Source: Candidatus Micrarchaeia archaeon | Lineage (GTDB): Archaea; Micrarchaeota; Micrarchaeia; Anstonellales; J096 | Direction of reading: 5' to 3' | DNA: 40,976 nt | Assembly (NCBI GenBank): GCA_041500865.1 | Contig: JBGQMY010000009.1 | Coordinates: forward strand, 1-40,976 | Shown here: in pieces, positions 4,581-24,181 of the stretch | How the letters are laid out: each line of letters begins with the position of its first letter | Numbering within the stretch: position 1 is the stretch's first letter | The notes under the pieces: model-generated | The model's input: the letters and a program-made list of their open reading frames with translations, nothing else | Told to the model about the DNA's origin: nothing | Databases searched by the model: none | Made by a program: the position numbers and the translations under genes

Positions 4581-5141
4581 ATGGATATAATATCCGAAAA
4601 CGCCAAAAAGACCATCCAAGGCCTTTCAAGCGTGGACTACAAGCAGATATACAGCGTCGGAAAAATAGTGGCGCATGCGATGAAGGCAGGAAACAAGCTC
4701 CTTGTTGCAGGCAACGGCGGCTCTGCTGCTGATGCCCAGCACCTTGCAGGCGAGCTGGTCTGCAAGTTCCTTAAGGACAGGAAGGGCTATCCGGCCATTG
4801 CGCTCAACGCCAATGCCAGCGTAATCACGGCATGGGCGAACGACGTTGGCTATGACACGGTCTTTGCCAGGCAGATAGAGGCGCTTGGGAAAAAAGGGGA
4901 TGTTTTCCTTGGCATAACGACCAGCGGCAACTCTAAAAACATCATCGAGGCTTTCAAGAAATGTAAGGAGATTGGCATAACGACCGTGCTGCTTGAAGGC
5001 GGCAAAAAAGGAACAGCAGAGGCCTACGCCGACATCGCCATAAAAGTAGGCCTTGACGAGACCCCGAGGATACAGGAATGCCACATCTTCATTGTCCACA
5101 ACCTCTGCTATGTGATAGAGGAAGAGATGGCAAAGGCCTAA
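4581..5141 (+). CDS. gmhA: Sedoheptulose-7-phosphate isomerase (SIS domain)
   Basis: GNGGSAADAQH, TAWAND.GYD.VFARQ, TTSGNS, RIQECH motifs; AGGTG SD upstream. Confidence 0.95.
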   Translation: MDIISENAKKTIQGLSSVDYKQIYSVGKIVAHAMKAGNKLLVAGNGGSAADAQHLAGELVCKFLKDRKGYPAIALNANASVITAWANDVGYDTVFARQIEALGKKGDVFLGITTSGNSKNIIEAFKKCKEIGITTVLLEGGKKGTAEAYADIAIKVGLDETPRIQECHIFIVHNLCYVIEEEMAKA

Positions 5142-6178
5142 TTTTCCGTCCTCCAGGTGACCATGCCGTTGAAGTCAAAGTCAAAGTTCACGAGCCTTGC
5201 GCCTTCCCTGGCCATGGCGTTTATTATCTTCTTGCGTTCAGCTATGTCGCTCATGAAGAACAGGAACCCGCCCCCGCCCGCGCCGCACAGCTTTCCGCCG
5301 TATGCGCCGGCATCCATGCCTGCCTTGTACATCCTGTCTATCTCCGGATAGGTGACGCCGGGAAGCTTTCTCTTTTCAATCCAGCTTTCATTCAGCAGCC
5401 CGCCCATCGTCTTGACATCCCCGTTTATGATGGCGTCCTTCATCCCATAGGCGCAGTCCCTTATCTTTTTTAAATATTCTATGCTTTCGCCGCCCTTCCT
5501 TATGTCCCTGTCCTTCATTTCCTCCACCTTGGACGCGGTCTCGGCCCTTGGCGTAGGCGTCTCAAAAAGCAGCATTGACGAATGCAGCTCTGAAACAAGG
5601 TCAGATTCCAGCCTTAGCGGGAACATCCTTATCCTTTCCTTCCTGAACTCAATGAAGTTGAATCCCCCGAATACGGCCGCATACTGGTCCTGGTACCCGC
5701 CCGCCCTCTTGAGCACCTCCCTTTCTATATGGTATGCGGTCTTTGCAAGCTTGTCCCTGTCCATGAGCGGCTTGCCGGCTGCGTTGAATATGGCAGCCAT
5801 GAGCGAGACCACGAGGCCGGATGAGCCTGCCAGTCCGGAGTTCTTGGGCGCTGCGGAATGGACTATCAGCCTGTACCCGTCCTTTGGGTCCAGCTTTGCG
5901 TATTCCATGACCGCCTTGACTATGTCCACGTTTGTTTCCCTGTTTTTATCAAACTCAAGGCCCAGGTCCTCTATCTTCTTGTCAATGTCCCAGTCATGGG
6001 ATATTACCCTTGTGTTTTTCTCGTTTGTCTTGGAGAATGCCGTGTATGAGTAGAGGTTTATGCCGACGTTCAGGACTGCCCCCCCATGTTCATGGAAGAA
6101 GCTCGGCAGGTCGCTGCCGCCCCCGCCTATGCCTATCCTGGAAGGCGAGCGCGCCTTTATCGTTATGTCATGGTCCAT
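5138..6178 (-). CDS. hddA: D-glycero-alpha-D-manno-heptose 7-phosphate kinase (GHMP family)
   Basis: PSRIGIGGGGSD, PKNSGLAGSS, GGYQDQYAAVFGGFN, GGKLCGAGGGG; next to gmhA. Confidence 0.88.
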   Translation of the reverse strand: MDHDITIKARSPSRIGIGGGGSDLPSFFHEHGGAVLNVGINLYSYTAFSKTNEKNTRVISHDWDIDKKIEDLGLEFDKNRETNVDIVKAVMEYAKLDPKDGYRLIVHSAAPKNSGLAGSSGLVVSLMAAIFNAAGKPLMDRDKLAKTAYHIEREVLKRAGGYQDQYAAVFGGFNFIEFRKERIRMFPLRLESDLVSELHSSMLLFETPTPRAETASKVEEMKDRDIRKGGESIEYLKKIRDCAYGMKDAIINGDVKTMGGLLNESWIEKRKLPGVTYPEIDRMYKAGMDAGAYGGKLCGAGGGGFLFFMSDIAERKKIINAMAREGARLVNFDFDFNGMVTWRTEN

Positions 6179-6200
6179 ATACTGCTGTTCCAGCGCGGTA

Positions 6201-6208
6201 TTTAAAAA
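6201..6208. promoter_or_regulatory. Putative shared TATA box for divergent hddA and mtnP-apt
   Basis: TTTAAAAA ~22 nt from the hddA start (6178, minus) and ~22 nt from an in-frame ATG at 6231 (plus). Confidence 0.55.
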
Positions 6209-6305
6209 TTATATCATCTTTGATTATCAGATGGCGGCAGGCGGCTGCGCCAGGGCAATCCTTATCCCCGGGCGCGGAACCGCCGATGTTGCAGGGGCGC
6301 ATGGC

Positions 6306-7643
6306 ATGGCGAAGATTGCGGTAATAGGCGGCTCTGGGCTTGACAACCCGGACATCCTGAAAAGCGAAAAGGAGGTGGCAGTGCACACAATGTACGGGCC
6401 CGTTACTGTCAGGGAGGGGGTCTTGGACGGCGTCTCCGTAGTGCTGCTTGCCCGCCATGGGGCCAAGCATGAAACAGCAGCGACCTGGATTAACTACAGG
6501 GCCAATGTCTTTGCCCTGAAAAAGCTGGACGTGACGCATATACTTGCGATGACTGCGGTCGGGTCCCTCCGCGAGGAAATCAGGCCCGGCGACCTGGTCT
6601 TTCCGAGCCAGTTCATAGACTGGACCAGCCAGCGCGCGCTGACATTCCATGAAAATGCCGTTGTCCACACCCCGCTCTCAGAGCCGTACTGCCCCGCGCT
6701 GCGGCAGCTTGCGGCAAAGGCCGCAGCAGGGCTCAAAATCCGGCACCACAGCGACAAGACGCTTATCGTGATAGAGGGCCCGAGGTTCTCAACGCGCGCC
6801 GAAAGCAACGTATACAGGATGCTTGGCGCGGACGTGATCAACATGTCCGGCGTGCCGGAGGCCCAGCTCGCCCGGGAGGCAGGCATCTGCTACCTGCCAA
6901 TCGCGATGGTTACCGACTACGACTGCTGGAAGGAGCATGAGAAGGCAGTTACGTTCGACATGATAATGGACCAGATGGCAAAGAACGCCCAAACAGGCAC
7001 CTCCTTTTTGCGGGCCATCATCCCGGAAATAAAGGACACCGATTGCGGCTGCGCGGCAGGGATGCATCCTGCGATGAAAAGCCAGCTTGAAGGGCCGGCT
7101 TCGCCGCAACCCGGCGGAAAAAGCGATTTATCTTCATATATCAGGACAATCCCAAATTTTCCTAAGCAGGGCGTCATGTTCCGCGATGTTACGACGCTTT
7201 TCAAGGACAAGGCCGGGTTCAAGCTGATGATAGACAGGCTGCTTGGCATCTACAAGGACAAGAAGATAGACAAGATTGTCGGCATAGAGTCGCGCGGCTT
7301 CATCATAGCTTCGGTTTTGGCGTACAAGCTGGGCGCAGGGGTGGTGCTTGCAAGGAAGCCGAACAAGCTGCCCGCAGAGAAGATATCGCATGAGTATGAG
7401 CTTGAGTACGGCAGGGACAGGATTGAGATGCATGTTGACGCGATAAGGAAAGGCGAACGCGTTGCAATAGTTGACGATTTGATTGCGACAGGCGGGACCG
7501 CGGCAGCGGTCGCGAAGCTTGTGGAGCGGCTGGGCGGGGAAATAGACTCCTTTGCCTTTGTCGTGGACTTGCCGGAGCTTGGCGGAAAGGAAAAGCTGAA
7601 GCCGCACAAGATATACACGCTTGTGGAGTTTGAGGGAAAATGA
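6306..7643 (+). CDS. mtnP-apt: Fusion of 5'-methylthioadenosine phosphorylase (MTAP) and adenine phosphoribosyltransferase (APRT)
   Basis: N-half: IGGSG, LARHG, NYRAN, AVGSL, EGPRFSTRAES, INMS, VTDYDCW, C-terminal CGC. C-half after a Pro/Gly linker: IRTIPNFPKQGVMFRD, GIESRGF, RKPNKLP, YELEYG, VDDLIATGGT. Single uninterrupted ORF; alternative start 6231. Confidence 0.92.
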   Translation: MAKIAVIGGSGLDNPDILKSEKEVAVHTMYGPVTVREGVLDGVSVVLLARHGAKHETAATWINYRANVFALKKLDVTHILAMTAVGSLREEIRPGDLVFPSQFIDWTSQRALTFHENAVVHTPLSEPYCPALRQLAAKAAAGLKIRHHSDKTLIVIEGPRFSTRAESNVYRMLGADVINMSGVPEAQLAREAGICYLPIAMVTDYDCWKEHEKAVTFDMIMDQMAKNAQTGTSFLRAIIPEIKDTDCGCAAGMHPAMKSQLEGPASPQPGGKSDLSSYIRTIPNFPKQGVMFRDVTTLFKDKAGFKLMIDRLLGIYKDKKIDKIVGIESRGFIIASVLAYKLGAGVVLARKPNKLPAEKISHEYELEYGRDRIEMHVDAIRKGERVAIVDDLIATGGTAAAVAKLVERLGGEIDSFAFVVDLPELGGKEKLKPHKIYTLVEFEGK

Positions 7644-7662: not shown

Positions 7663-8803
7663 ATGACAGTTCCAGGCGTTGCCAAAAGGGGCAGGAAGGT
7701 CTTTGTCAGCCTTTTTCCAGCCTGCGAGGACCAGCACGTTGCCAAAGACTCCTGCATGATAGCTTATGTCATGGGCCGGGATTTCGGATACGACGGCATT
7801 GTGGCTTGCAATAGGAACGGCGAATATCCGTCGCTGGCAACAGAAACGCCAGGCCTGAAAATGGATTTCATAGACTGCACAGGCATCCGATTTTTTGACC
7901 GCCTTATATACATTTTGAAAAATGCCGGAAAAATTGACGTGCTGCAGGTCATGCAGTTCTCAGTTCCCAGCCTGCTCTGCGGCGCACTCTACAAGAAACT
8001 CAACCCAAAAAGGGATTGTATACATAAAGACGGATAAATCCGCTGAATATATATGTGCAAATCCAAACGGCATTGGCATAGACGACTTCGTGTTCTTCTC
8101 AAAATTCGCGCACTTCGATGTCATCAGCGTCGAGTCGCAGGAGGCCGCGAAGCTCCTGCATAACAACCCAAAGCTCCAGAAATACAAGGATAGCATCATA
8201 TACCAGCAGAACGGCGTCGACGCAATGAGGCTTTCCGAATTCAGGATACCGTTTGGGCAGAAGGAGAACATTGTCCTGCATGTCGGCAGGATAGGCAACT
8301 GGCAGAAGGCGACCGATGTCGCCATTGAGGCATTCTCAAGGATATGCGGCGATTTCCCGGAATGGCGCCTTGTGATTGTCGGCCCGATGAATAAGGATGG
8401 CCCAGGATTTGCGCCGGAAACATCCAAGAGGGTGTCAAATCTCGGCAAAGTGCCGAAAGAGGAGCTTTTCAGGACATACGCGAAGTCAAAGATACTGTTC
8501 GCGCCGTCCAGGAGCGAGGGATTGCCGGCAGCGGCATTGGAAGCCGGCTACTTCGGGACCGTGCTTCTGGGATCGGCAATGAACTCAATGAAGAACCAAA
8601 TAAACAACAATGATGAGTTTGGCGACACATGCCCGATAGACGACGTGAAATGCTTCGCTTCCAAGCTGGCAGCGCTGATGAAGGGCGGCGACAGGCTCAA
8701 AGAAATGTCCGCCGGGATAGCAAAGCACATAGAAACCAATTTTGAATGGCACGCGGTATGCGCGCAGCTTGAGGAAGAATTCAACAGGGTGAGGCAAAAA
8801 TGA
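7663..8803 (+). pseudogene. GT4 (group 1) glycosyltransferase interrupted by a +1 frameshift at A5 (8007-8011)
   Basis: ORF1 ...LYKKLNPK| and ORF2 |GIVYIKTD...HVGRIG.WQK...SEGLPAAALEA. Deleting one A from CCAAAAAGGG gives one 379-aa reading frame. Confidence 0.8.
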
Positions 8804-9714
8804 AGATTGTAGTTACAGGAGGGGCGGGCTTCATAGGCTCGCATTTGGTGGACAGGCTTGTGTTGGAGCAAAACGATGTGCTTGTCCTGGACGACCTTTC
8901 CACAGGGAGAGAGGAAAATGTCAATAAGGGTGCCCGGCTCATCATAATGGACCTGATGGACCCGAAGCTTGCAACGGTAATCAAGGATTATGATGCGGTT
9001 TTCCATCTTGCGGCGGACCCGGACGTGAGGACAAGCTTCTCAAATCCGGAAAGATCGTTCAAAAACAACGCAGTAGCGACCTTTGGCCTGCTCGAGGCGA
9101 TGAGGGACGGCGGCCCGAAGAGGCTTTTGTTCACATCGACTTCCGCAGCCTATGGGATAGCCAAGATTCCGACCCCGGAAACTGCCCCATGCGCGCCCAT
9201 AAGCGTGTACGCGGCATCCAAGCTCGCGTGCGAGGCGATGATATCCGCATATTCATATTGCCACGGAATAAAATCGACAATAGTGAGATATGCAAACATA
9301 TTCGGCGAAAGATCCAGGCATGGCATAATGTACGATCTCTTCCTTAAACTAAGCAAGGATCCGTCTTCGCTGGAGGTGCTTGGGGACGGAAAACAGGCAA
9401 AATCATATCTCCATGTCTCGGATTGCGTCAATGCCACCCTGCTTGCATTCAAAAAACAGCAGAGCCAGCTGGAGGTCTTCAATATTGGCAGCGAATCGAC
9501 AACCACCGCATATGAGGTAGCCAAGATGATGGCAGAAGAAATGGGGATTGAGCCGAAAATCCGGTGCGCCGGCGGCGAGGCATGGAAGGGGGATGTGACA
9601 AGGATGCTTCTGGACACCTCAAAAATAAAGGAACTCGGCTTCTCGCCGCAAGTGCCGTTCAAGGACGGCCTGAAAAGGTATGTGAATTGGCTAAGGGGGT
9701 CTGCGAGGCCATGA
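8800..9714 (+). CDS. UDP-glucose 4-epimerase-like extended SDR
   Basis: TGGAGFIGSH, DDLSTG, FHLAA.PDV, YAASK, RYANIFG, GDGKQAKSYL. Confidence 0.88.
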   Translation: MKIVVTGGAGFIGSHLVDRLVLEQNDVLVLDDLSTGREENVNKGARLIIMDLMDPKLATVIKDYDAVFHLAADPDVRTSFSNPERSFKNNAVATFGLLEAMRDGGPKRLLFTSTSAAYGIAKIPTPETAPCAPISVYAASKLACEAMISAYSYCHGIKSTIVRYANIFGERSRHGIMYDLFLKLSKDPSSLEVLGDGKQAKSYLHVSDCVNATLLAFKKQQSQLEVFNIGSESTTTAYEVAKMMAEEMGIEPKIRCAGGEAWKGDVTRMLLDTSKIKELGFSPQVPFKDGLKRYVNWLRGSARP

Positions 9715-9715
9715 C

Positions 9716-10624
9716 ATGAAAGTATTAATAACTGGTGCAGCTGGATTCGTCGGCTCCAGGCTCTGCAAGCATTTCGAGTCAAGAGGCCATGAGGTGATAG
9801 CATGCGACAACTTCCGCTTCGGGTCGCACAAAACGCTTAAGGGATTCAAAGGGAAGGTGTTTTCCAAGGATTTCTCATCGATAACAGACGATGATTTGGC
9901 CGGAGTGAATGCCGTTTTCCATGAGGCTGCGATATCCGATCCCACTTTCAAGTCAGAGACTGAGATAATGGAGACCAACTTCCAGGATGCGTCTGCGTTC
10001 ATGGACCGCTGCTGCGGCCTTGGGATACGTTTCATATATGCTTCCTCATCTGCCGTATATGGAAATACCAAGACACCGAACGTTGAATTCATGGACGAGA
10101 AGCCGCATAATGCCTATGCCATGTCCAAGCTTAAGCTGGACCATTATGCCATAAAAAAGATGAAGGACGGAAACAGGATAAACGGCCTGAGATACTTCAA
10201 CATATATGGCCCTGGCGAGGAGTTCAAGGGCAAGCCATCGTCAATCGTATTCCATTTCCTGAAAAGCTTCCTTTCAGGGGACCGCCCGGTGATTTTCGGG
10301 GACGGCAAACAGAGGCGCGATTTCATATACATAGAGGATATCCTCAATGCGAACGAGCTGGCCATTTCAGCCAAGGAAAGCTTCATAGTCAACGTGGGCA
10401 GCGGAAAATCAACATCTTTCAATGATCTTTATAGGCTGATAGAGGAAGAGCTTGGAATGGAAGAAACAGGCCCGATATACAAGCCGAATCCATCCCCCAG
10501 CAATTACCAATACAATGTCGAGGCCAGCCTGGACTTATGCGCGCACAAGCTTGGATTTGTTCCATCCTGGAGTCTAAAGAACGGCATAAAGGAATTTGCC
10601 GCATATCTGGAGGCGGTATTATAG
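9716..10624 (+). CDS. Nucleotide-heptose 6-epimerase-like SDR (HldD/RfaD-like)
   Basis: TGAAGFVG, FHEAAISD, METNF, YASSSAVYG, YAMSK, GLRYFNIYGPGEEFKG, QRRDFIY; heptose gene context. Confidence 0.75.
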   Translation: MKVLITGAAGFVGSRLCKHFESRGHEVIACDNFRFGSHKTLKGFKGKVFSKDFSSITDDDLAGVNAVFHEAAISDPTFKSETEIMETNFQDASAFMDRCCGLGIRFIYASSSAVYGNTKTPNVEFMDEKPHNAYAMSKLKLDHYAIKKMKDGNRINGLRYFNIYGPGEEFKGKPSSIVFHFLKSFLSGDRPVIFGDGKQRRDFIYIEDILNANELAISAKESFIVNVGSGKSTSFNDLYRLIEEELGMEETGPIYKPNPSPSNYQYNVEASLDLCAHKLGFVPSWSLKNGIKEFAAYLEAVL

Positions 10625-10689
10625 TGAGCAGCAATCCGTATAAAGACTCCTGGTGCCAGCCTTTAAAAGCTTAGCGCGCATGTATTATT

Positions 10690-11613
10690 ATGGACAACTT
10701 ATCGCATGTTGTAGTCACCGGCGGAGCGGGATTCATAGGAAGCAATATCGCCAGGAAACTCATCCAAAGAGGCGATGAAGTTTCAGTTGTTGACAATATG
10801 CACACCGGCTCGCCCGGGAACCTAGGCGGAGTCGGCATAAAGAAGCTGTACAAGGAAAATGTCGGAAACATCGGCAAGCTCGGGATGGGCGATGTGGATT
10901 ATATCTTTCATGAGGGGATATATTCCTCATCTCCGATGTACAGGGAAGATAAGAGGCTTACCGGCAAGGCCGTTTCGGAATTCATAGAGCTGATGGAGTT
11001 CGCGAGAGCCAAGGACATAGGGGTTACTTTCGCGTCAACCTCTTCGATATACAATGGATTTAAGCCACCGCACAGGGAAGACATGCTTCCGCTGGTAAGG
11101 GATTTCTATACAGAAGCCAGATATCCGATGGAGAGGATAGGCAAGCTCTACTCCGACATATATGGGATAAAGGTAATTGCGCTGAGATACTTCAGCGTTT
11201 ATGGGCCACACGAAAAGGCAAAGGGCGAGTATGCAAACCTGATTACCCAGTTTATGCTGGGCATGGCAAAGGGAAAGAGGCCGGTGATATACGGGGACGG
11301 AAGCCAAAGGCGGGATTTCATCAATGTTGATGACGTTGTCAAGGCAAACATCATGTCGATGGAGAAGAGAAATCTGAATTATGGTTTTTTCAACGTCGGA
11401 ACCGGAAAGAGCTACAGCCTGAATGAGATGGCGGGGATGCTGAACAAGAGCATGAGGAAGAGCATAGCTCCGAGATATGTAGAGAACAAGGCTTTCAATT
11501 ATATTCATGAAACGCTTGCGGATGCCTCGCTGTGCAAAGAAAAGCTTGGATTTGAAGCCAAGATTAGCCTTGAAACAGGGATAAAGAATCTGGTCAGTTT
11601 CTACGGATACTGA
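10690..11613 (+). CDS. NAD-dependent epimerase/dehydratase (YxxxR variant)
   Basis: TGGAGFIGS, FASTSSIY, YTEAR, LRYFSVYGP, GDGSQRRDF. Confidence 0.85.
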   Translation: MDNLSHVVVTGGAGFIGSNIARKLIQRGDEVSVVDNMHTGSPGNLGGVGIKKLYKENVGNIGKLGMGDVDYIFHEGIYSSSPMYREDKRLTGKAVSEFIELMEFARAKDIGVTFASTSSIYNGFKPPHREDMLPLVRDFYTEARYPMERIGKLYSDIYGIKVIALRYFSVYGPHEKAKGEYANLITQFMLGMAKGKRPVIYGDGSQRRDFINVDDVVKANIMSMEKRNLNYGFFNVGTGKSYSLNEMAGMLNKSMRKSIAPRYVENKAFNYIHETLADASLCKEKLGFEAKISLETGIKNLVSFYGY

Positions 11614-11629: not shown

Positions 11630-12524
11630 ATGGATAATATGGCAACATTGGAGATAACAACCCGGATAGGATGCAGCAATATGTGCGTGTATTGCCCGCA
11701 GAAGCTTCTTTTGGATAGTTATGCATTAAGGAACGCAGAGGCAGACAAATATGTAATGTCATTTGAGGACTTCAAAACCTGCATAGGCAAAGTGCCAAAA
11801 AACGTGCATATACACTTTACCGGCTTTGCCGAGCCGTTCCTGAACCCAGACTGCATGGAAATGGCAGAATATGCGGATAAGGCAGGATACCCAATTCATA
11901 TTTATACCACGCTTATGGGCATGCATCCATCAGACATGCATAAAATTTCTTTGATGAAAAACCTTGTCGGGCTTGTCGTGCATCTTCCAAGCAGGCAGAA
12001 TGACACGAAGATAGTTGTTGACGGCAAATACCTCAATAACCTTGAAAGCGCATGCGAGCGCATCAAGCCGCTGGAATTTGTCTATTTTGGCGAACTGGAC
12101 GACAGGATTAAAGGAATCGTGGGGGGGGGGGGCTTACCTGAAAGACAAGGCAACGCTTCATGACAGGGCCGGAACATTAAGCGAGGATAAATTGGTTGGA
12201 TTCAATTCTGTTTCAAAACAGGAAAGGAAAAAAGGCGTCATAACCTGCTATTCCTGCGGAAACAAGTTAGACCACAATATCCTTCTTCCAAACGGCGACG
12301 TTGTACTGTGCTGCATGGACTATGGCATGAAACACGTTATTGGCAACCTGCTGACAGACGATTATGTCTCGTTGTTCCAGTCCAAAGAATACAAAAGGGT
12401 AAAAAGCGGACTTTCAAACCCAAATGAGGACATTATATGCAGGGATTGCTTCAATTCCATTGAAAGAAAAGGCGTTTGGGGATGGATAAGATACCTCAAT
12501 GCAGTGCGGAAAGAATGGATTTAA
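11630..12524 (+). pseudogene. Radical SAM/SPASM-domain protein, out of frame at a G12 tract (candidate phase-variable gene, OFF state)
   Basis: ORF1: CSNMCVYC (CxxxCxxC), FTGFAEPF, YTTLMG. ORF2: HDRAG, C..., LLPNGDVVLCCMDY, IGNL, CRDC (SPASM). G11 would join them into 297 aa. Confidence 0.85.
12121..12132 (+). repeat. Homopolymeric G12 tract
   Basis: ATCGT GGGGGGGGGGGG CTTAC; by far the longest homopolymer I saw in the window. Confidence 0.97.
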
Positions 12525-12609: not shown

Positions 12610-13410
12610 ATGACCTGGGAAGAGAAAAACTATCAAGGATATTCGAGCGGAACGCTTGGCAGCGCCCTTTTGGAAGAAAACGTCTTTTATGAATCAGAAC
12701 GGGCCTTCAGGCTTCATTTCAACAGCGCTGCAGATTTCGGCAAGTGCATCGACTTCGGCGGCAGGATAGGGGAAAGGACGAGAAAAATACGCGATATTGT
12801 TGTATTTGAGATTGACAAGGGCTCAATAGAATGGATGAAGAATGAAAAAATACTATGTATCGGCAATATCGAGGGCATACAGGACAATTCGCTGGACATG
12901 GTCTATTGCTCCCATGTTTTGGAGCACATAAAGAACTATAACATGACATTGGACACGATCCGCAGGAAACTGAAGGATGGCGGGCAGCTTATTCTGGTGG
13001 TGCCCGTCGAGTTCCCAAAGATTGATTTCGGCGGTTTTGTAATAGACGAGAACGGCCATATACAGAATTGGGGCCTGCCGAACATTTTCACGGTCCTTGA
13101 CAACAGCGGCTTTGCGGTTGAGGGCTGGAAGACGCTGTTCGTCCCCCTAATCCCATTCTCAAAAAGGCTGTTCTGCCATTCCAGGTCAGTTCCAAGGGCG
13201 GTTAAGACAGCATACCTTGACATCCAGTCCAAACTTCTCAAACACAAGACAATCCGCTTTGTGGCGTATGCCATATGCGCAGCCATGTCGTTTTCCATAA
13301 ATTCATTTATAGTTTTTCCGTTTTCCGTTTTTGGGAAGAGGCCCCCTTCATTCTTCATAAATCCGATTCTTGGCGAGATTGTCGTTTACTGCAGAAAACC
13401 GGGGCAATAG
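12610..13410 (+). CDS. Class I SAM-dependent methyltransferase with hydrophobic C-terminal segment
   Basis: IDFGGRIG, FEID, YCSHVLEHI, KLKDGG. Paralog of 2664-3494. Confidence 0.8.
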   Translation: MTWEEKNYQGYSSGTLGSALLEENVFYESERAFRLHFNSAADFGKCIDFGGRIGERTRKIRDIVVFEIDKGSIEWMKNEKILCIGNIEGIQDNSLDMVYCSHVLEHIKNYNMTLDTIRRKLKDGGQLILVVPVEFPKIDFGGFVIDENGHIQNWGLPNIFTVLDNSGFAVEGWKTLFVPLIPFSKRLFCHSRSVPRAVKTAYLDIQSKLLKHKTIRFVAYAICAAMSFSINSFIVFPFSVFGKRPPSFFINPILGEIVVYCRKPGQ

Positions 13411-13543
13411 CCAAGAATAAGCGTTTTAAACCCGACAACCGGATGCTTTTTAAATTCGGGCTGCCATCGCTATTTTCAATGTTCCATCAGCTCAAGGCGC
13501 AGCGTTTAGGCATTAAAAATGATGTAGCATCCTGGCGTTTCCC

Positions 13544-14431
13544 ATGAAAACCATAATGTCCAGGACCGGCGAAAAGCTGGGGATAACCCTGTTTGACAAT
13601 GGCGGCAACGCGCGGGAGCTGGAAAGCATGGAAGAATACTATTTCCTGGTCAACCTGTGGGGGAACGCAAGGCGCTGCCTGAAATACATCATAGCGAAAT
13701 CTTTGGTAAGGATGGACGCTGTCTCGCTGTTCGTGCTTTCCAAGTTTCTCATGAAAAAAATGGCTGGCGCCGAAATCACTACCGAGCGAGACCAGCTCTT
13801 TGAGAGGCTGTCCGGGATTCACCATTTTGAGCTGCTCTTCAGGGGCAGGAGAATCCAATTTTCCCAAAATCCCGGCTTCATCTTCAACACCATCCACCAG
13901 GTATTCACTGAAAACCAGTATAATGTAAGCGAAAAGAACGTAATGGGCAAGATTGTAGTTGACGCTGGCAGCCAATTAGGAGATTTTTCAATACTTTGTG
14001 CCTGCTATGGGGCAAAGAAAGTCTATGCCTTTGAGCCAATAGAAAAGGATTTCAAGATTTTGCAGCAGAATATAAAGCTGAATGGATTAGAAGATATCAT
14101 AATCCCATTCCAAAATGCGGTCGGATCAGAGAATGGGAAAGTCAACATTGGCTCCGCTACAAGTCCAGTGGATGTTGATTGTATAGCATTAGACACTTTC
14201 CTAGATGGAGAAAGGATTGATTTCCTGAAGATGGATATAGAAGGAGATGAGGAAAAAGCGCTCATCGGGGCAAAAGAGACTATCAAGAAATTCAAACCAA
14301 TATTGTCTTTTGCAGCATACCACTATAATGGCAAATATAAGACTAGGCTTCAGGAAGTAGTGCATTCAATAAGGCCTGATTATGCGATAAAGCTGAACTC
14401 GTTCTACGAGGAGGACTTCTACTGCGAATAG
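13544..14431 (+). CDS. FkbM-family methyltransferase
   Basis: VVDAGSQLGDFS, VYAFEP, NIKLN, IDFLKMDIEGDE, AAYH. Confidence 0.88.
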   Translation: MKTIMSRTGEKLGITLFDNGGNARELESMEEYYFLVNLWGNARRCLKYIIAKSLVRMDAVSLFVLSKFLMKKMAGAEITTERDQLFERLSGIHHFELLFRGRRIQFSQNPGFIFNTIHQVFTENQYNVSEKNVMGKIVVDAGSQLGDFSILCACYGAKKVYAFEPIEKDFKILQQNIKLNGLEDIIIPFQNAVGSENGKVNIGSATSPVDVDCIALDTFLDGERIDFLKMDIEGDEEKALIGAKETIKKFKPILSFAAYHYNGKYKTRLQEVVHSIRPDYAIKLNSFYEEDFYCE

Positions 14432-14464: not shown

Positions 14465-15592
14465 ATGCAGCTTGCGATACTTTGCGGCGGATTGGCTACG
14501 AGGCTCGGCGGCCTGTCCAAGGGCGTCCCAAAGGCCCTGATGGGCATCAACGGCAGGCCCTTCCTTGATTTGATATTCGAAAGATACAGGGCAGCCGGCT
14601 TCACCAGGTTCGTGCTTCTTGCAGGGTACCTTGCAGACCAGCTCAAAGGTTACGAGTCGGCGGACACATCGATGGTGGTTGAGCCAGAGCCCCTTGGCAC
14701 AGGCGGCGCGGTGCTAAACGCCCTTGGCCAGCTGGAAAGCAGGTTCTGGCTGGCAAACGGCGACACCTACCTCATGGCGCCGGATATGGCGGAATTCGTG
14801 GCATTCTCAATGGACAAGCCGGCCTCCATGTACATGACGTACGAGGACGCGTTCGACAAGGATGTCCCGAGACTGGAAAATGGCAGGATAACCGGCTTCA
14901 CCAGGAGCGACACAGGCAGGGACTGGGTCAATGCAGGGCTTTTCTCCTTCTCTAGGGATGCACTGAAGGGGTTCGGCAAAGGCAAGCTGGAGCTCGAGAA
15001 GGACGTCCTTTCAAAAATCGCGTCACAAGGCGGGCTTTACGGCTTCAGGGGGAAAGGCAAGCTGTTTGACATAGGCAGGCCCGAGCGGCTTGAGCTGTTC
15101 AGGAACTTCATGAAGGAAAAGGGCAAAAGGAAGGCAGTGCTGATAGACAGGGACGGGACGATAATGGAGCATGTTCACTACATCAACGACCCGGACAGGG
15201 TTGTCATCAGGGAGCTTGTCGTTGAAAAGCTCAAAGCGTTCCGTGATGCGGGCTACATGGTTATCATGGTCTCCAACCAGAGCGGGATAAAAAAAGGCCT
15301 GATAACAAAGGAGCAGCATGACGCGGTCATGCAAAGGATGGACGAGCTGCTGGCCGAGAAGGGCCTGGAGCTGGACGACGTGCTCTTCTGCTTCTCAACG
15401 GACAAGGACAACGACCCAAGGCGCAAGCCAAGCCCTGGCATGATTTTTGAGGCGAGGGACAAGTACGGCCTTGACCTTTCGCAGTGCGTCATGGTCGGGG
15501 ACAGGGAAGACGTTGACATGGAGGCTGGCAGGCGCGCAGGCATCGGAAGGTGCTACCTTGTTGATGATTTCGTCAAAAGCGCAAAACCCTAA
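14465..15592 (+). CDS. hddC-gmhB: Fused heptose-1-phosphate guanylyltransferase (HddC-like) and heptose-1,7-bisphosphate phosphatase (GmhB-like HAD)
   Basis: N: LCGGLATRL, PKAL, EPEPLGTGGA, NGDT, NAG, FDIG.PE. C: DRDGT, VSNQSGI, RKPSPGM, MVGD...D. Confidence 0.9.
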   Translation: MQLAILCGGLATRLGGLSKGVPKALMGINGRPFLDLIFERYRAAGFTRFVLLAGYLADQLKGYESADTSMVVEPEPLGTGGAVLNALGQLESRFWLANGDTYLMAPDMAEFVAFSMDKPASMYMTYEDAFDKDVPRLENGRITGFTRSDTGRDWVNAGLFSFSRDALKGFGKGKLELEKDVLSKIASQGGLYGFRGKGKLFDIGRPERLELFRNFMKEKGKRKAVLIDRDGTIMEHVHYINDPDRVVIRELVVEKLKAFRDAGYMVIMVSNQSGIKKGLITKEQHDAVMQRMDELLAEKGLELDDVLFCFSTDKDNDPRRKPSPGMIFEARDKYGLDLSQCVMVGDREDVDMEAGRRAGIGRCYLVDDFVKSAKP

Positions 15593-20602: not shown

Positions 20603-23600
20603 CTAGTCTCTAGTAACCACTTTCACGAACCCGTGCTTCGGGAAATAGATTTCCCCGTTCCTCATCAGCTCGTCTATTATGCGCCTTGTCTTGCCCTCCT
20701 CTATGTTCACGCCCTTCGCCTCCTGGATTATCATCTCAACCTCAACCGCGTCATACTGCGAGGACAGCTCCTTGACTATGTCCATAACTTGGATAATCTT
20801 CTCCCTTTCGCTCTGGCTCCTGCCCGTGCTTATGATGTCAACGTCAATACGTCCAGTCTCCTGGTCAGTCATTATCGCCTTCATGACGTAGTTCATGATA
20901 TCCACCGCAACCTTGGCGTCCCTTTCCTGGACAGTGTCGCTCAGCCTCAGCTTCGCGTTCGCCTCAGCCAAACGGACCAAGCCCTCAAGGTACCTTGGCG
21001 TTATGGGGACAGAGCCGGTCCTCTGCCCCAGGCTCCTCAGGCTCAGGTAAAACTCCTTTATTGCCTTTGCCGCCTCTGCCGTGAGCCTGGGATTGATGTT
21101 CTTCTTTGCGTACGCGATGTATTTCCTGAGGACGTCGGTGCTTATTATGTCCTCCCTCTTTTCGGTTTTTTCATCCCGCTCCTCGCGCGAATCCAGGGCA
21201 TTGAGGTGCGTTCCGAGTATGTGGTCGGCCAGCCTCTCGTCCCTTTGCACGTCCAGTATGTCCAGTATCGGGAATATCAGGTCAAACCTTGAAAGCAGGG
21301 ACGGCGGTATGTCAAACTGCTCGCTTATGTGCTTGTTCTGCTGGAACCTCCCGAATTTCGGGTTTGCCGCAGCCACTATCGCCGTTTTCGCCCTTAGCGT
21401 TGCCACGATGCCAGCCTTGGCTATAGATACGGTGTTGTGCAGTACGGCGCATTCGGATATGAATGCCTGAGTTGGCCTAACAGTAACATCGTAAACCCAT
21501 GCCTCGTTTTCATTCCTTACCTTCTCGGTTTTCCTTATTGCCACAAAGCCGATGTCCCCTGTCGCAAACCTCTCAATGAGCCTGAACTGGCCTTCATTTT
21601 CCAGCATTTTTGCAAGCATGGCCTTGATGGCAGAGCGATACCTTCCAAGGAATATTTTCCTGCATTCCCAGTATGAGACAGTCGCCCTTTTTATCCCGGA
21701 AAATGCCTCAATGTCGTATTGGGACAGGTTTAGCTTCCTGCGGAGCATTATCAGCTCATCATAGCCGCAATTGTCAGCGCTTCCCATCGCGGCGCGCAAG
21801 GCATCAACCTTCTTTCTCATCGTTGCGCATACCTTTTCAAAGTTCCTGCGTGTAAAGCAGAATCCCCTTCTTTGGCTGTAAAGGCCGTAGCCAAGAACGG
21901 AATTTTCATCTATCTTGAGTTTTTTGAGAAGGCTGAGCACGGTTTTTGCGCATCCTGGGACCACGTCGGTGGTGCTCATGTTCCTCGTTTCCTTTTTCAG
22001 GTATTCGTCAAGCCTCTGCCTTTTCTTCTTTCCCAGAAAACCTATGGAGTCGCGGTACCTTTGGATGTTGTCTCTCCCTGTTATTGTCAGGCGGAAGACG
22101 TTTCCATCGGCAAACATATGGCTCCTTATGCCGAACCTCAGAAGAAGCGTCTGCACCTGCTCGATGAAGAACCTGTTTTCCCCGACTAGGCCTATGTAAT
22201 GCTCTGAGAAAGTCCCGTCAGAATCAAACATTGCGCGCAGCATTGCCGACACATGCTCTGGCTTGGCAGACATGAACTGGGGCGGCACTATCTTGTCTGC
22301 GCCCTTGCCGACAAGCGAAGGATGGAGCAGCTCCATCTGCCTCAGCGCACCCATGGAAATCATGCGCACAGCCTTTACCCCAGTTCCCGCCCTTTCCGTA
22401 AAATATGGCGCAACCCCGAAAGAGGCCGTCGCCGCCACGCTGTAATCATCTATCAGGTCATCGTCCTTGTTGTAGAAGTTTATCCCGTTCTTGCAACCGC
22501 GGTTTAGCTCATAGCCGCCGTCTGTTATATGATATCCGGTGACCTTTAGCAGTTCAGGCCTGAATTCTTCCCTGGATTGCGAAAGCGGAAGGCGGCGCGG
22601 CATAAGCGTATAATCCTTTGCTGTCAGTTCTTCCGCCGGCTTTGTCATGACTTCCCCGTTTTCCACCACCCAGAACGGGTGCTCCGGCGTGACCAGGACT
22701 TCGCGCCCGGTCTGCATCACCACCTTTATGAAATATTCCGGGGCCTTGTGCTTGCTGATTTGGTACGGCGCGGTTTCGCTTATCTTGCTGAAATCCGTAG
22801 TAAGGAGCCTGATGCCCCCGATCCCTTCCCTCAGGATAAGGCAGTCTTTTCCGGCCATTATCTTGTCGCGATTCGCTGCCATCAATCCCTCGACCAGTTC
22901 GCCAATCCTCATCTCAATGCCGTCTGAAAGCATGATTTTTGTGTTGAAGTGGTAGCTTTGGCTCTCCATCACTTCGTGAAGCGAGCCCCTGTCCTCGTCG
23001 TCTATCTTGTCGAACTCGTCTATCGCCGCTATGCCGCCGCTTGCCAGCACCAGTGCGCCTGCCTTTAGCGTCCAACCTTCCCCAGACAGCTCGTCCTTTT
23101 CCGCGCTTGCTGTCAACCCAACTCCGGAAACGCTCTTTCCGCTCACGTATATGCTCTTCAGCGCTATGGCTACTGTCTGCTGGAGGAACCTCGTCTTTGC
23201 GATGCCCGGGTCCCCGACAAGCAGCACGTGTATGTCGTCCCTTATCTTTGAGCCGCCGCTCGTTATCTTGTCCTTTGTCCCGCCGAAAAGCTGGAGCGCC
23301 AAGGCCTTCTTGATTTCCCTGTAGCCCCATATGTCCGGGGCGATGGAGTTCGTTATCATGTCCTCAAGGTCTTCCCTTGCCGCAAGCTTGAGTATCTCAG
23401 CCTCGTCCTCCTTCGTTAGCGGTATGTCCTCAAAGTCCTTCTTCAGCTTCCTTATGTGCACGATGTCCACGTGCTTTGAGAAGACGGTGTGCGACTTGTT
23501 CTTGCCCTGGTTCGGGCTTATCCTCAGTATGCCGCTCACCTCGACGTTGTCGCCGGGTATGATTTTGTTGACCAAATCGTCCTCCAGGTTGCATATCACC

Positions 23601-24181
23601 TTGGACGTGGGGCTTCCGGACCTCACCCTTTCCAGCATGTCCTGGACCTCTATCCTCTGCATGTCCAAAAACTTGCTTTCATCCAGCATTTCCTTGAGGA
23701 AGCCCTTCTTGCATATCGGGCACTTTGAAGGCGGGGTGAAATCCTTGATTACGACAAGCTCGAACCTCTCGCTGCACGAGCCGCACTTGTACACGAGCTT
23801 GTGCGCCTTGTTCAGCACGTCGCCCCTCCTGCCAATCAGCCCTTTGAACGAGAAGAACTTGTTCAGGTGCCTTGAGCCTATCTGCTCGACCAGCAGGTTC
23901 CTGTCCGGTATGCCGAAGAACCTAACATGGGGCTTGAAAGCATCCCCGGACGGCGTGGCTATCTTCAGCCCCTCAACGGCTGTCTCGGCCGCCTTTATGA
24001 GGTCGTCAGGGCTGTCGTTGAGCGCGTTGGCCAAGTCCACGTCAAATCCAAGCAGGTCCTTGAAGTCAACCTCAATGCTCCTGTTCTTGGGATAGTCTTT
24101 GAGTATGCGTTCAACCTCCTTCTGGTAAAAGGACGTGAAGAACTGCTCAAACTGCGGGACATATCCCTCAAGGTCTGCCAT
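20603..24181 (-). CDS. mcm: Replicative helicase MCM containing an intein
   Basis: CGSC/CPIC Zn finger, LVGDPGIAKT, AGALVLA, IDEFDK, AAANP, SRFD arginine finger; AGGAGGA SD. Confidence 0.97.
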   Translation of the reverse strand: MADLEGYVPQFEQFFTSFYQKEVERILKDYPKNRSIEVDFKDLLGFDVDLANALNDSPDDLIKAAETAVEGLKIATPSGDAFKPHVRFFGIPDRNLLVEQIGSRHLNKFFSFKGLIGRRGDVLNKAHKLVYKCGSCSERFELVVIKDFTPPSKCPICKKGFLKEMLDESKFLDMQRIEVQDMLERVRSGSPTSKVICNLEDDLVNKIIPGDNVEVSGILRISPNQGKNKSHTVFSKHVDIVHIRKLKKDFEDIPLTKEDEAEILKLAAREDLEDMITNSIAPDIWGYREIKKALALQLFGGTKDKITSGGSKIRDDIHVLLVGDPGIAKTRFLQQTVAIALKSIYVSGKSVSGVGLTASAEKDELSGEGWTLKAGALVLASGGIAAIDEFDKIDDEDRGSLHEVMESQSYHFNTKIMLSDGIEMRIGELVEGLMAANRDKIMAGKDCLILREGIGGIRLLTTDFSKISETAPYQISKHKAPEYFIKVVMQTGREVLVTPEHPFWVVENGEVMTKPAEELTAKDYTLMPRRLPLSQSREEFRPELLKVTGYHITDGGYELNRGCKNGINFYNKDDDLIDDYSVAATASFGVAPYFTERAGTGVKAVRMISMGALRQMELLHPSLVGKGADKIVPPQFMSAKPEHVSAMLRAMFDSDGTFSEHYIGLVGENRFFIEQVQTLLLRFGIRSHMFADGNVFRLTITGRDNIQRYRDSIGFLGKKKRQRLDEYLKKETRNMSTTDVVPGCAKTVLSLLKKLKIDENSVLGYGLYSQRRGFCFTRRNFEKVCATMRKKVDALRAAMGSADNCGYDELIMLRRKLNLSQYDIEAFSGIKRATVSYWECRKIFLGRYRSAIKAMLAKMLENEGQFRLIERFATGDIGFVAIRKTEKVRNENEAWVYDVTVRPTQAFISECAVLHNTVSIAKAGIVATLRAKTAIVAAANPKFGRFQQNKHISEQFDIPPSLLSRFDLIFPILDILDVQRDERLADHILGTHLNALDSREERDEKTEKREDIISTDVLRKYIAYAKKNINPRLTAEAAKAIKEFYLSLRSLGQRTGSVPITPRYLEGLVRLAEANAKLRLSDTVQERDAKVAVDIMNYVMKAIMTDQETGRIDVDIISTGRSQSEREKIIQVMDIVKELSSQYDAVEVEMIIQEAKGVNIEEGKTRRIIDELMRNGEIYFPKHGFVKVVTRD
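21434..22957 (-). mobile_element. 508-aa intein with LAGLIDADG homing endonuclease and an XRE-type HTH
   Basis: Splice junctions HEVMESQ/SYHFNTKI...VLHN/TVSIAKAG; block B VTPEHPF; GYHITDG and AMFDSDG motifs; VYDVTV block F. Removal leaves a 684-aa MCM. Confidence 0.95.

Follow-up and report, generated by a model that had tools for sequence, protein, structure and literature searches.

As a bacterial strategy, phase variation through simple repeats is textbook knowledge, but it is hardly documented in Archaea. Among the closest described systems are the poly-G/C contingency genes in the capsule, LOS, and flagellar-glycan loci of Campylobacter jejuni (cf. PMC8224891) and the pgl and lgt genes of Neisseria, in which a poly-G run inside a glycan gene acts as the ON/OFF determinant (for pgtA, cf. 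PMC2193922). A statistical survey of homopolymers, which takes in 18 archaeal genomes, treats frameshifts at homopolymers as a means of reversible gene inactivation; in its available text, poly(C)/(G) tracts and tracts longer than 8 are not near 5' ends and no archaeal case study appears (PMC2831843). An earlier note on this DNA had held that such a mechanism is little described in archaea, and the literature bears this out: the available text of a 2025 review names the archaeal distribution of phase variation as future work (PMC11868660), that of another source mentions phase-variable systems for bacteria only (PMC10609329), and our text searches of the literature found no description of a simple-repeat phase-variable glycan gene in Archaea.

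Within the window (the whole stretch of 40,976 nucleotides that was analysed), a homopolymer of 12 G interrupts a radical SAM/SPASM gene. The likeness to C. jejuni is fourfold: a glycan-modifying gene contains a long G run, MutS/MutL-type repair appears to be lacking, gmhA/hddA-type heptose genes are in the locus, and a one-base change turns the gene off. Unlike C. jejuni, the host here is archaeal and a gene in the neighbourhood is broken at a site that is no repeat; moreover, C. jejuni has ~ 30 tracts per genome with visible variation in cultures, whereas here there is one tract, found as G12 only. The position of the run inside a glycan gene also recalls Neisseria, but switching was shown experimentally there, whereas here, in an uncultured organism, we infer only that it is possible. 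With the survey, this case shares a homopolymer frameshift as a reversible way of inactivating a gene.

Our leading reading, to which we assign a probability of about 0.4, is that G12 is a real slippage insertion (G11 to G12) and a very recent knock-out of a sugar-modifying radical SAM/SPASM gene. The reading of the earlier note, a working contingency switch, is possible but doubtful; under it, the radical-SAM modification of a surface heptose glycan would be toggled stochastically in a DPANN (Micrarchaeota-type) archaeon with no mismatch repair.

The interrupted radical SAM/SPASM gene

The gene and its parts are as follows.

11630 to 12524, + strand: radical SAM/SPASM gene as a whole, 297 aa if the tract were G11, interrupted by a +1 frameshift and collinear with homologues of 280-306 aa
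11630 to 12163, + strand: N-terminal frame as it stands, with the radical SAM core C15xxxC19xxC22, followed by LPERQGNAS and TGA
12121 to 12132, + strand: G12 homopolymer; read as G11, it encodes Gly-Gly-Gly, flanked by Val (GTG) and Ala (GCT)
12132 to 12524, + strand: C-terminal SPASM/twitch-like half, in the +1 frame and intact to TAA

The sequence at the tract reads T, twelve G, then C. The frame opened by the ATG at 11630 (frame 2) encodes 177 aa, the last 9 residues of which (LPERQGNAS) form an out-of-frame tail, and stops at TGA 12161-12163. From 12015 onwards, frame 0 has no stop until TAA 12522-12524, and G11 (also G8 or G14) joins the two frames, which are offset by +1, so that one G fewer gives a stop-free radical SAM/SPASM protein of 297 aa (P0002). 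The frames and the domain matches agree in placing G12 at the frameshift between the CxxxCxxC and SPASM domains, as the earlier note had claimed, and the one-G-fewer reading confirms its further claim that both halves lack stops and that G8, G11, or G14 would restore 297 aa. The tract lies mid-gene (codons 164-168 of 297) and the product of the OFF state, G12, is a 177-aa Fe-S fragment, which speaks against a switch. Two features of the same site argue for one: a long G run sits in an otherwise intact glycan-modification gene, and, in an alignment of 17 sequences, the Gly-Gly-Gly falls in a gap-rich, length-variable, non-conserved inter-domain linker (IV-GGGAYL here vs IV-KNQQRN in the 56% identical homologue) that should tolerate 2-4 Gly.

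The N-terminal half carries the C15-x3-C19-x2-C22 motif and matches Radical_SAM (PF04055) with 25.6-27.3 bits, below the cut-off of 29.5, a label that is precomputed on many close homologues; the C-terminal half matches SPASM (PF13186) with 35.5-38.3 bits, above the cut-off of 21.5. In the 17-sequence alignment C19 and C22 are invariant, C15 is nearly so, and the C-terminal Cys ligands C206, C227, C270, and C273 are invariant. Relatives of P0002 number 1339 at E ≤ 0.001 among 1840 candidates; they are mostly 280-310 aa long and mostly carry SPASM, with or without the Radical_SAM label. No NCBIfam model matched the protein at or above its cut-off. When the family profile was compared with solved structures, it matched BtrN at E 2.9e-8 in the auxiliary-cluster half and DesII at E 2.4e-3 in the core; these are radical SAM enzymes whose substrates are an aminocyclitol for BtrN (PDB 4m7s/4m7t) and a TDP-sugar for DesII (8hzv/8hzy). 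The gene studied here likewise stands in a sugar-modifying context, but the similarity is distant, and we describe its product as a predicted sugar-modifying radical SAM enzyme with an auxiliary-cluster SPASM domain.

P0002 is collinear with the other aligned sequences end to end, with no insertion needed at the tract, and keeps all 40 invariant columns, 17 of which are downstream of the tract. The alignment thus points to a gene that is otherwise intact and probably under purifying selection, and, because all 40 columns are kept, to a recent break. The N and C halves are 58% and 56% identical to the nearest homologue, respectively, and equal in GC content, which rules out that two genes were joined into a chimera at the tract. 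The untranslated C half has undergone no extra decay; its preservation alongside the N half favours a switch, and its full conservation, although compatible with a recent knock-out, would be equally expected of a switch under periodic selection.

In 10 of the 12 other homologue loci scanned, genes for a glycosyltransferase or a sugar-nucleotide enzyme adjoin the homologue, a context that also suits a switch, and FkbM methyltransferase genes flank it in 3 of the 12. Homologues were found in 3 of 41 genomes, own genome included. An intact paralogue (42% identical) is present in the same genome (C33:1763-2608), where it adjoins a GT1-type gene, and the homologue of a same-genus genome (G002, 44%) pairs with this paralogue and not with the broken gene; it is likely the orthologue of the paralogue. 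At another locus (L029:5998-7248), a radical SAM/SPASM homologue is fused to a methyltransferase domain, with a phage capsid gene 2.7 kb upstream and a GT2 gene adjoining.

The glycan locus and its second frameshift

The genes around the interrupted one are listed below.

4581 to 5141, + strand: GmhA-like sedoheptulose-7-phosphate isomerase (TIGR00441 with E 3.5e-56 and 189.5 bits, slightly below its cut-off of 209; SIS_2)
5138 to 6178, - strand: HddA-like heptose-7-phosphate (GHMP) kinase (NF049969, E 6e-69, below cut-off)
7663 to 8803, + strand: GT4 glycosyltransferase gene with a +1 frameshift, split against homologues of 360-420 aa
8007 to 8011, + strand: A5 run (ccAAAAAggg) where the GT4 frame changes; here the homologue reads LNPNGIVYIK
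8800 to 11613, + strand: three SDR epimerase/dehydratase genes (domain matches)
12610 to 14431, + strand: two SAM methyltransferase genes, class I then FkbM type, directly downstream of the radical SAM gene
14465 to 15592, + strand: sugar-1-phosphate nucleotidyltransferase fused to a GmhB-like heptose bisphosphate phosphatase (domain/family matches)

The 15 kb around the tract also encode a sugar C-methyltransferase-type protein and other methyltransferases, and two of the SDR genes (9716-10624 and 10690-11613) are closest to heptose 6-epimerase (TIGR02197, 234.5 and 150.3 bits, below 274.6). Family-level matches for isomerase, kinase, phosphatase, and nucleotidyltransferase, most of them scoring below equivalog cut-offs and too low to specify the exact nucleotide and sugar, indicate a putative modified-heptose glycan locus; the heptose-type assignment of the earlier note thus held for its GmhA-, HddA-, and GmhB/nucleotidyltransferase-like genes. 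Near its 5' end, the HddA-like gene contains an in-frame G7 (6079-6085, read as C7 on the + strand); within the window, only G12 is a longer G/C run. An ORF at 6060-7643 encodes S-methyl-5'-thioadenosine phosphorylase (TIGR01694, 278.8 bits, above cut-off) fused to adenine phosphoribosyltransferase; because the locus is rich in SAM-using enzymes, this fusion may salvage MTA or 5'-deoxyadenosine by-products.

The host is archaeal, as had been proposed, as indicated by an MCM gene with an intein in the window; this MCM helicase gene (20603-24181, - strand) is split by the intein, which has a LAGLIDADG endonuclease domain. A domain search of the genome, which is 92% complete, found no MutS_V, MutL_C, or NucS_C, suggesting that slippage at the run would go uncorrected. 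This finding favours the slippage knock-out and the switch alike; yet a G11/G12 run without mismatch repair should flip often, and ON cells probably coexist whatever the selection, which weighs against a simple knock-out.

The GT4 gene is broken 4.1 kb upstream of the G12 tract. In the downstream frame, the match to its homologues (360-420 aa) begins only at residue ~ 29, opposite their residue ~ 115, and the read-through N part is continuous with them across the junction (52% identity over 164 aa with E 2e-48, and 42% identity with a second homologue). For this N part, neither Pfam nor a word-based search among longer proteins returned a match, and it was these direct comparisons that settled the frameshift. 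Publicly, the gene is annotated as a truncated product of 237 aa (P0123). The A5 at the junction is an ordinary, non-hypermutable run and not a contingency-type repeat, so that a neighbouring glycan gene is broken at a site that does not switch, contrary to what a maintained switch would lead one to expect. The break suggests decay, or local loss of function, of the locus.

As a check on whether the assembly is prone to errors, 356 ORFs from 397 kb of one same-genus genome were compared with this genome by tblastn. Matches were obtained for 313 of them, with 8 frameshift-like HSP pairs, one of which was the radical SAM gene; judged by eye, the others were mostly gene boundaries, a tRNA region, or ambiguous, and 2 were plausible. 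These two possible frameshifts lie on contig C12 at ~ 27438 (near a T6) and on contig C7 at ~ 14247 (at a T7). An error-riddled assembly was ruled out by the small number of such pairs, within the limits of 397 kb of one relative and of junctions judged by eye. As frameshifts are rare elsewhere, the two breaks among ~ 15 locus genes are a local feature, a post hoc observation that is descriptive only.

Rarity of the tract, public records, and explanations

G12 is the longest G/C run of the 1,043,478-base genome (36 contigs, 52% GC), which extends to the whole genome the impression of the earlier note that it far exceeds any other run noticed. It is followed by one G9, one C8, 19 G7, and 8 C7. 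The single G9 belongs to the G-rich junk that closes contig C30, the last ~ 45 bases of which (5447-5492) hold G7, G7, and G9 with short G-rich spacers between; this end looks like a sequencing poly-G artefact, and G-rich junk at contig ends is typical of two-colour chemistry. The scan for G/C runs of at least 9 that the earlier note had proposed as a check on switching hence yielded, this junk aside, a single tract.

As a chance null, we made 300 synonymous-codon shuffles over 984 called ORFs. Observed and expected numbers of G/C runs were 25 vs 67 for runs of at least 7, 1 vs 4.6 for at least 9, and 1 vs 0.72 for at least 11; a run of at least 11 was present in 53% of the shuffles. GGG makes up 22% of Gly codons and all-GGG Gly-Gly-Gly windows number 1 in 164. 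By run-length decay, G12 is far beyond expectation. The genome clearly avoids G/C runs, with the G12 tract as the lone exception. Given the frequency of such runs in the shuffles, the existence of one tract is by itself not wildly improbable: codon usage could yield one and the statistics are not compelling. The avoidance of G/C runs elsewhere favours a switch, as does, against a mere knock-out, the occurrence of the one long run in a glycan-modification gene, the class typical of bacterial contingency tracts. The codon shuffles and the solitary state of the tract count against a switch.

The truncated product made from the second ATG (P0003, 174 aa) is identical on two NCBI contigs (40976 and 71964 nt), so that the second assembly also gives G12. 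Among proteins of 163-520 aa there was no in-frame or other-length allele, the next match being 56% identical, and neither the protein collection nor the relatives' genomes nor metagenome contigs yielded an orthologue of more than 56% identity. The tract is absent at this site from the 16 aligned homologues, the C33 paralogue, and the same-genus homologue. In JGI metagenome contigs, the flank pattern with a gap of 6-20 nt gave 0 matches, and a protein-based scan of metagenome contigs (49 loci) returned no orthologue; matches over most of the query were at most 42% identical, with a few short C-terminal fragments at 44-53%. The variation in tract length that switching would entail was therefore not seen, G12 being the only length, in two public contigs, and the comparison of orthologues for tracts of variable length, proposed in the earlier note, turned up no homologue carrying a tract.

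Logan contigs of four of the five sediment/wetland runs that a run search returned, in which the word depth of the organism is 2-9x, include none that crosses 12121-12132. In run X1 one contig stops at 12123 and the next starts at 12122; the nearest contig ends are 15-45 nt from the tract in X3 and farther in X2. Such breaks may reflect mixed lengths or poor poly-G sequencing and are uninformative on length. That the tract stems from a poly-G artefact of the reads was dismissed by reasoning, because the unique flanks need spanning reads and the alignment needs no insertion.

Under our leading reading, the gene would encode Val-Gly-Gly-Gly-Ala in a tolerant linker through GTG GGG GGG GGG GCT, and the run would gain or lose single G's during replication, with no mismatch repair detectable. 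At G12, the ribosome would read 9 wrong codons and then stop, so that the CxxxCxxC core alone would be made, the auxiliary-cluster (SPASM) half would be lost, and the enzyme would be off. Because the GT4 gene is also frameshifted, at an ordinary A5, the heptose-glycan locus would be losing function in this lineage rather than maintaining a switch, even if the loss at the G tract would be reversible in principle. The knock-out is favoured by the GT4 break, by a lone, lineage-specific, mid-gene tract, and by a record that is OFF only. Whereas the tract, the frames, the intact halves, the locus content, the second frameshift, and the G12 product on two contigs are observed, slippage as the cause, G12 as the read-level majority, and no selection for switching are what we infer. 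One point against the knock-out is that G12 and the GT4 A5 are known from assembled consensus, and G12 could be a consensus error.

A recent gene loss, or fresh pseudogene, fits at least as well as the contingency switch. Both readings share one mechanism, in which an unrepaired homopolymer gains a single G by strand slippage and the SPASM half is cut off. According to the switch, slippage among G11, G12, and G13 would maintain cells with and without the radical-SAM modification of the surface heptose glycan, and the assemblies would have caught an OFF majority; the sole G12 length in both public contigs and the tract-free homologues make this rather doubtful. If true, the gene would rank among the earliest archaeal glycan genes described as phase-variable through a simple repeat, and reads showing mixed lengths would make it a concrete, testable case from Archaea: a surface-glycan pathway in a lineage of episymbiont type, whose contacts with hosts and viruses may be decided by surface chemistry. 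The role in virus evasion or host recognition that the earlier note attached to switching is speculation, and the case as it stands is a well-characterised candidate.

A consensus miscount, with a real tract of G11 (or G14), an intact gene, and a frameshift that is an artefact of homopolymer calling at low depth, is unlikely. The low word depth in the four runs, the G-rich junk at a contig end of the assembly, and the intact remainder of the gene are what one would expect of it, but the same G12 product is encoded on two contigs, the assembly is not frameshift-prone in general, and the GT4 frameshift is at an A5, which a short-read consensus rarely miscounts. Recoding, in which some full-length enzyme would arise because RNA polymerase slips, or the ribosome shifts by +1, on the G run, is very improbable: long homopolymers can cause transcriptional slippage and tRNA-Gly could re-pair on the run, but the site is conserved in no relative, the run is followed by no stop or rare codon and by no evident stimulator, no RNA run containing the stretch was found, and, to our knowledge, known recoding cases use A/T runs.

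G/C tracts in relatives of the order

G/C runs of at least 10 are present in 50 of 176 genomes of the order and in none of the 18 other genomes of the family, the latter being a further point against a switch. From 50 loci in relatives, we scanned 36 + 26 open frames that overlap a tract. None of the ~ 44 internal tracts of at least 10 G or C in these relatives lies in a recognisable glycan gene; the enrichment of long G/C runs in such genes that the earlier note had suggested looking for was thus not found in the 50 loci, again at odds with a switch.

Five tracts of relatives (G/C 10-13) are inside reverse-transcriptase (RVT_1) genes, at loci L077, L082, L083, L070, and L080 (genomes G100, G122, G123, G087, and G112, respectively). 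In L077, L082, and L083 the run is at the same spot, just before the ADIKHYFD motif, and is out of frame in the first two and in frame in L083; in L070 an out-of-frame G11 separates the ATG from the RT body, and the run of L080 is in frame. Tract-linked frame changes hence recur in these archaea, outside glycan loci, and the occurrence of runs of at least 10 in frame (L080, L083) as well as out of frame (L070, L077, L082) lends some support to a switch.

Several tracts of relatives adjoin IS605 OrfB genes. At L110 and L112-L116 (genomes G070 and G074), G/C runs of 10-12 occur in a conserved flank, gcatgcctattgc-Gn-...cttttat, and are probably part of a repeated mobile element; the run of L114 is just upstream of an IS605 OrfB/TnpB-like gene. 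At L068 (G076:C25), a gene for a Trm5/TYW2-type methyltransferase contains a C18 that borders on an N run and on low-complexity, GC-rich sequence; this C18 is most likely a scaffolding or assembly artefact.
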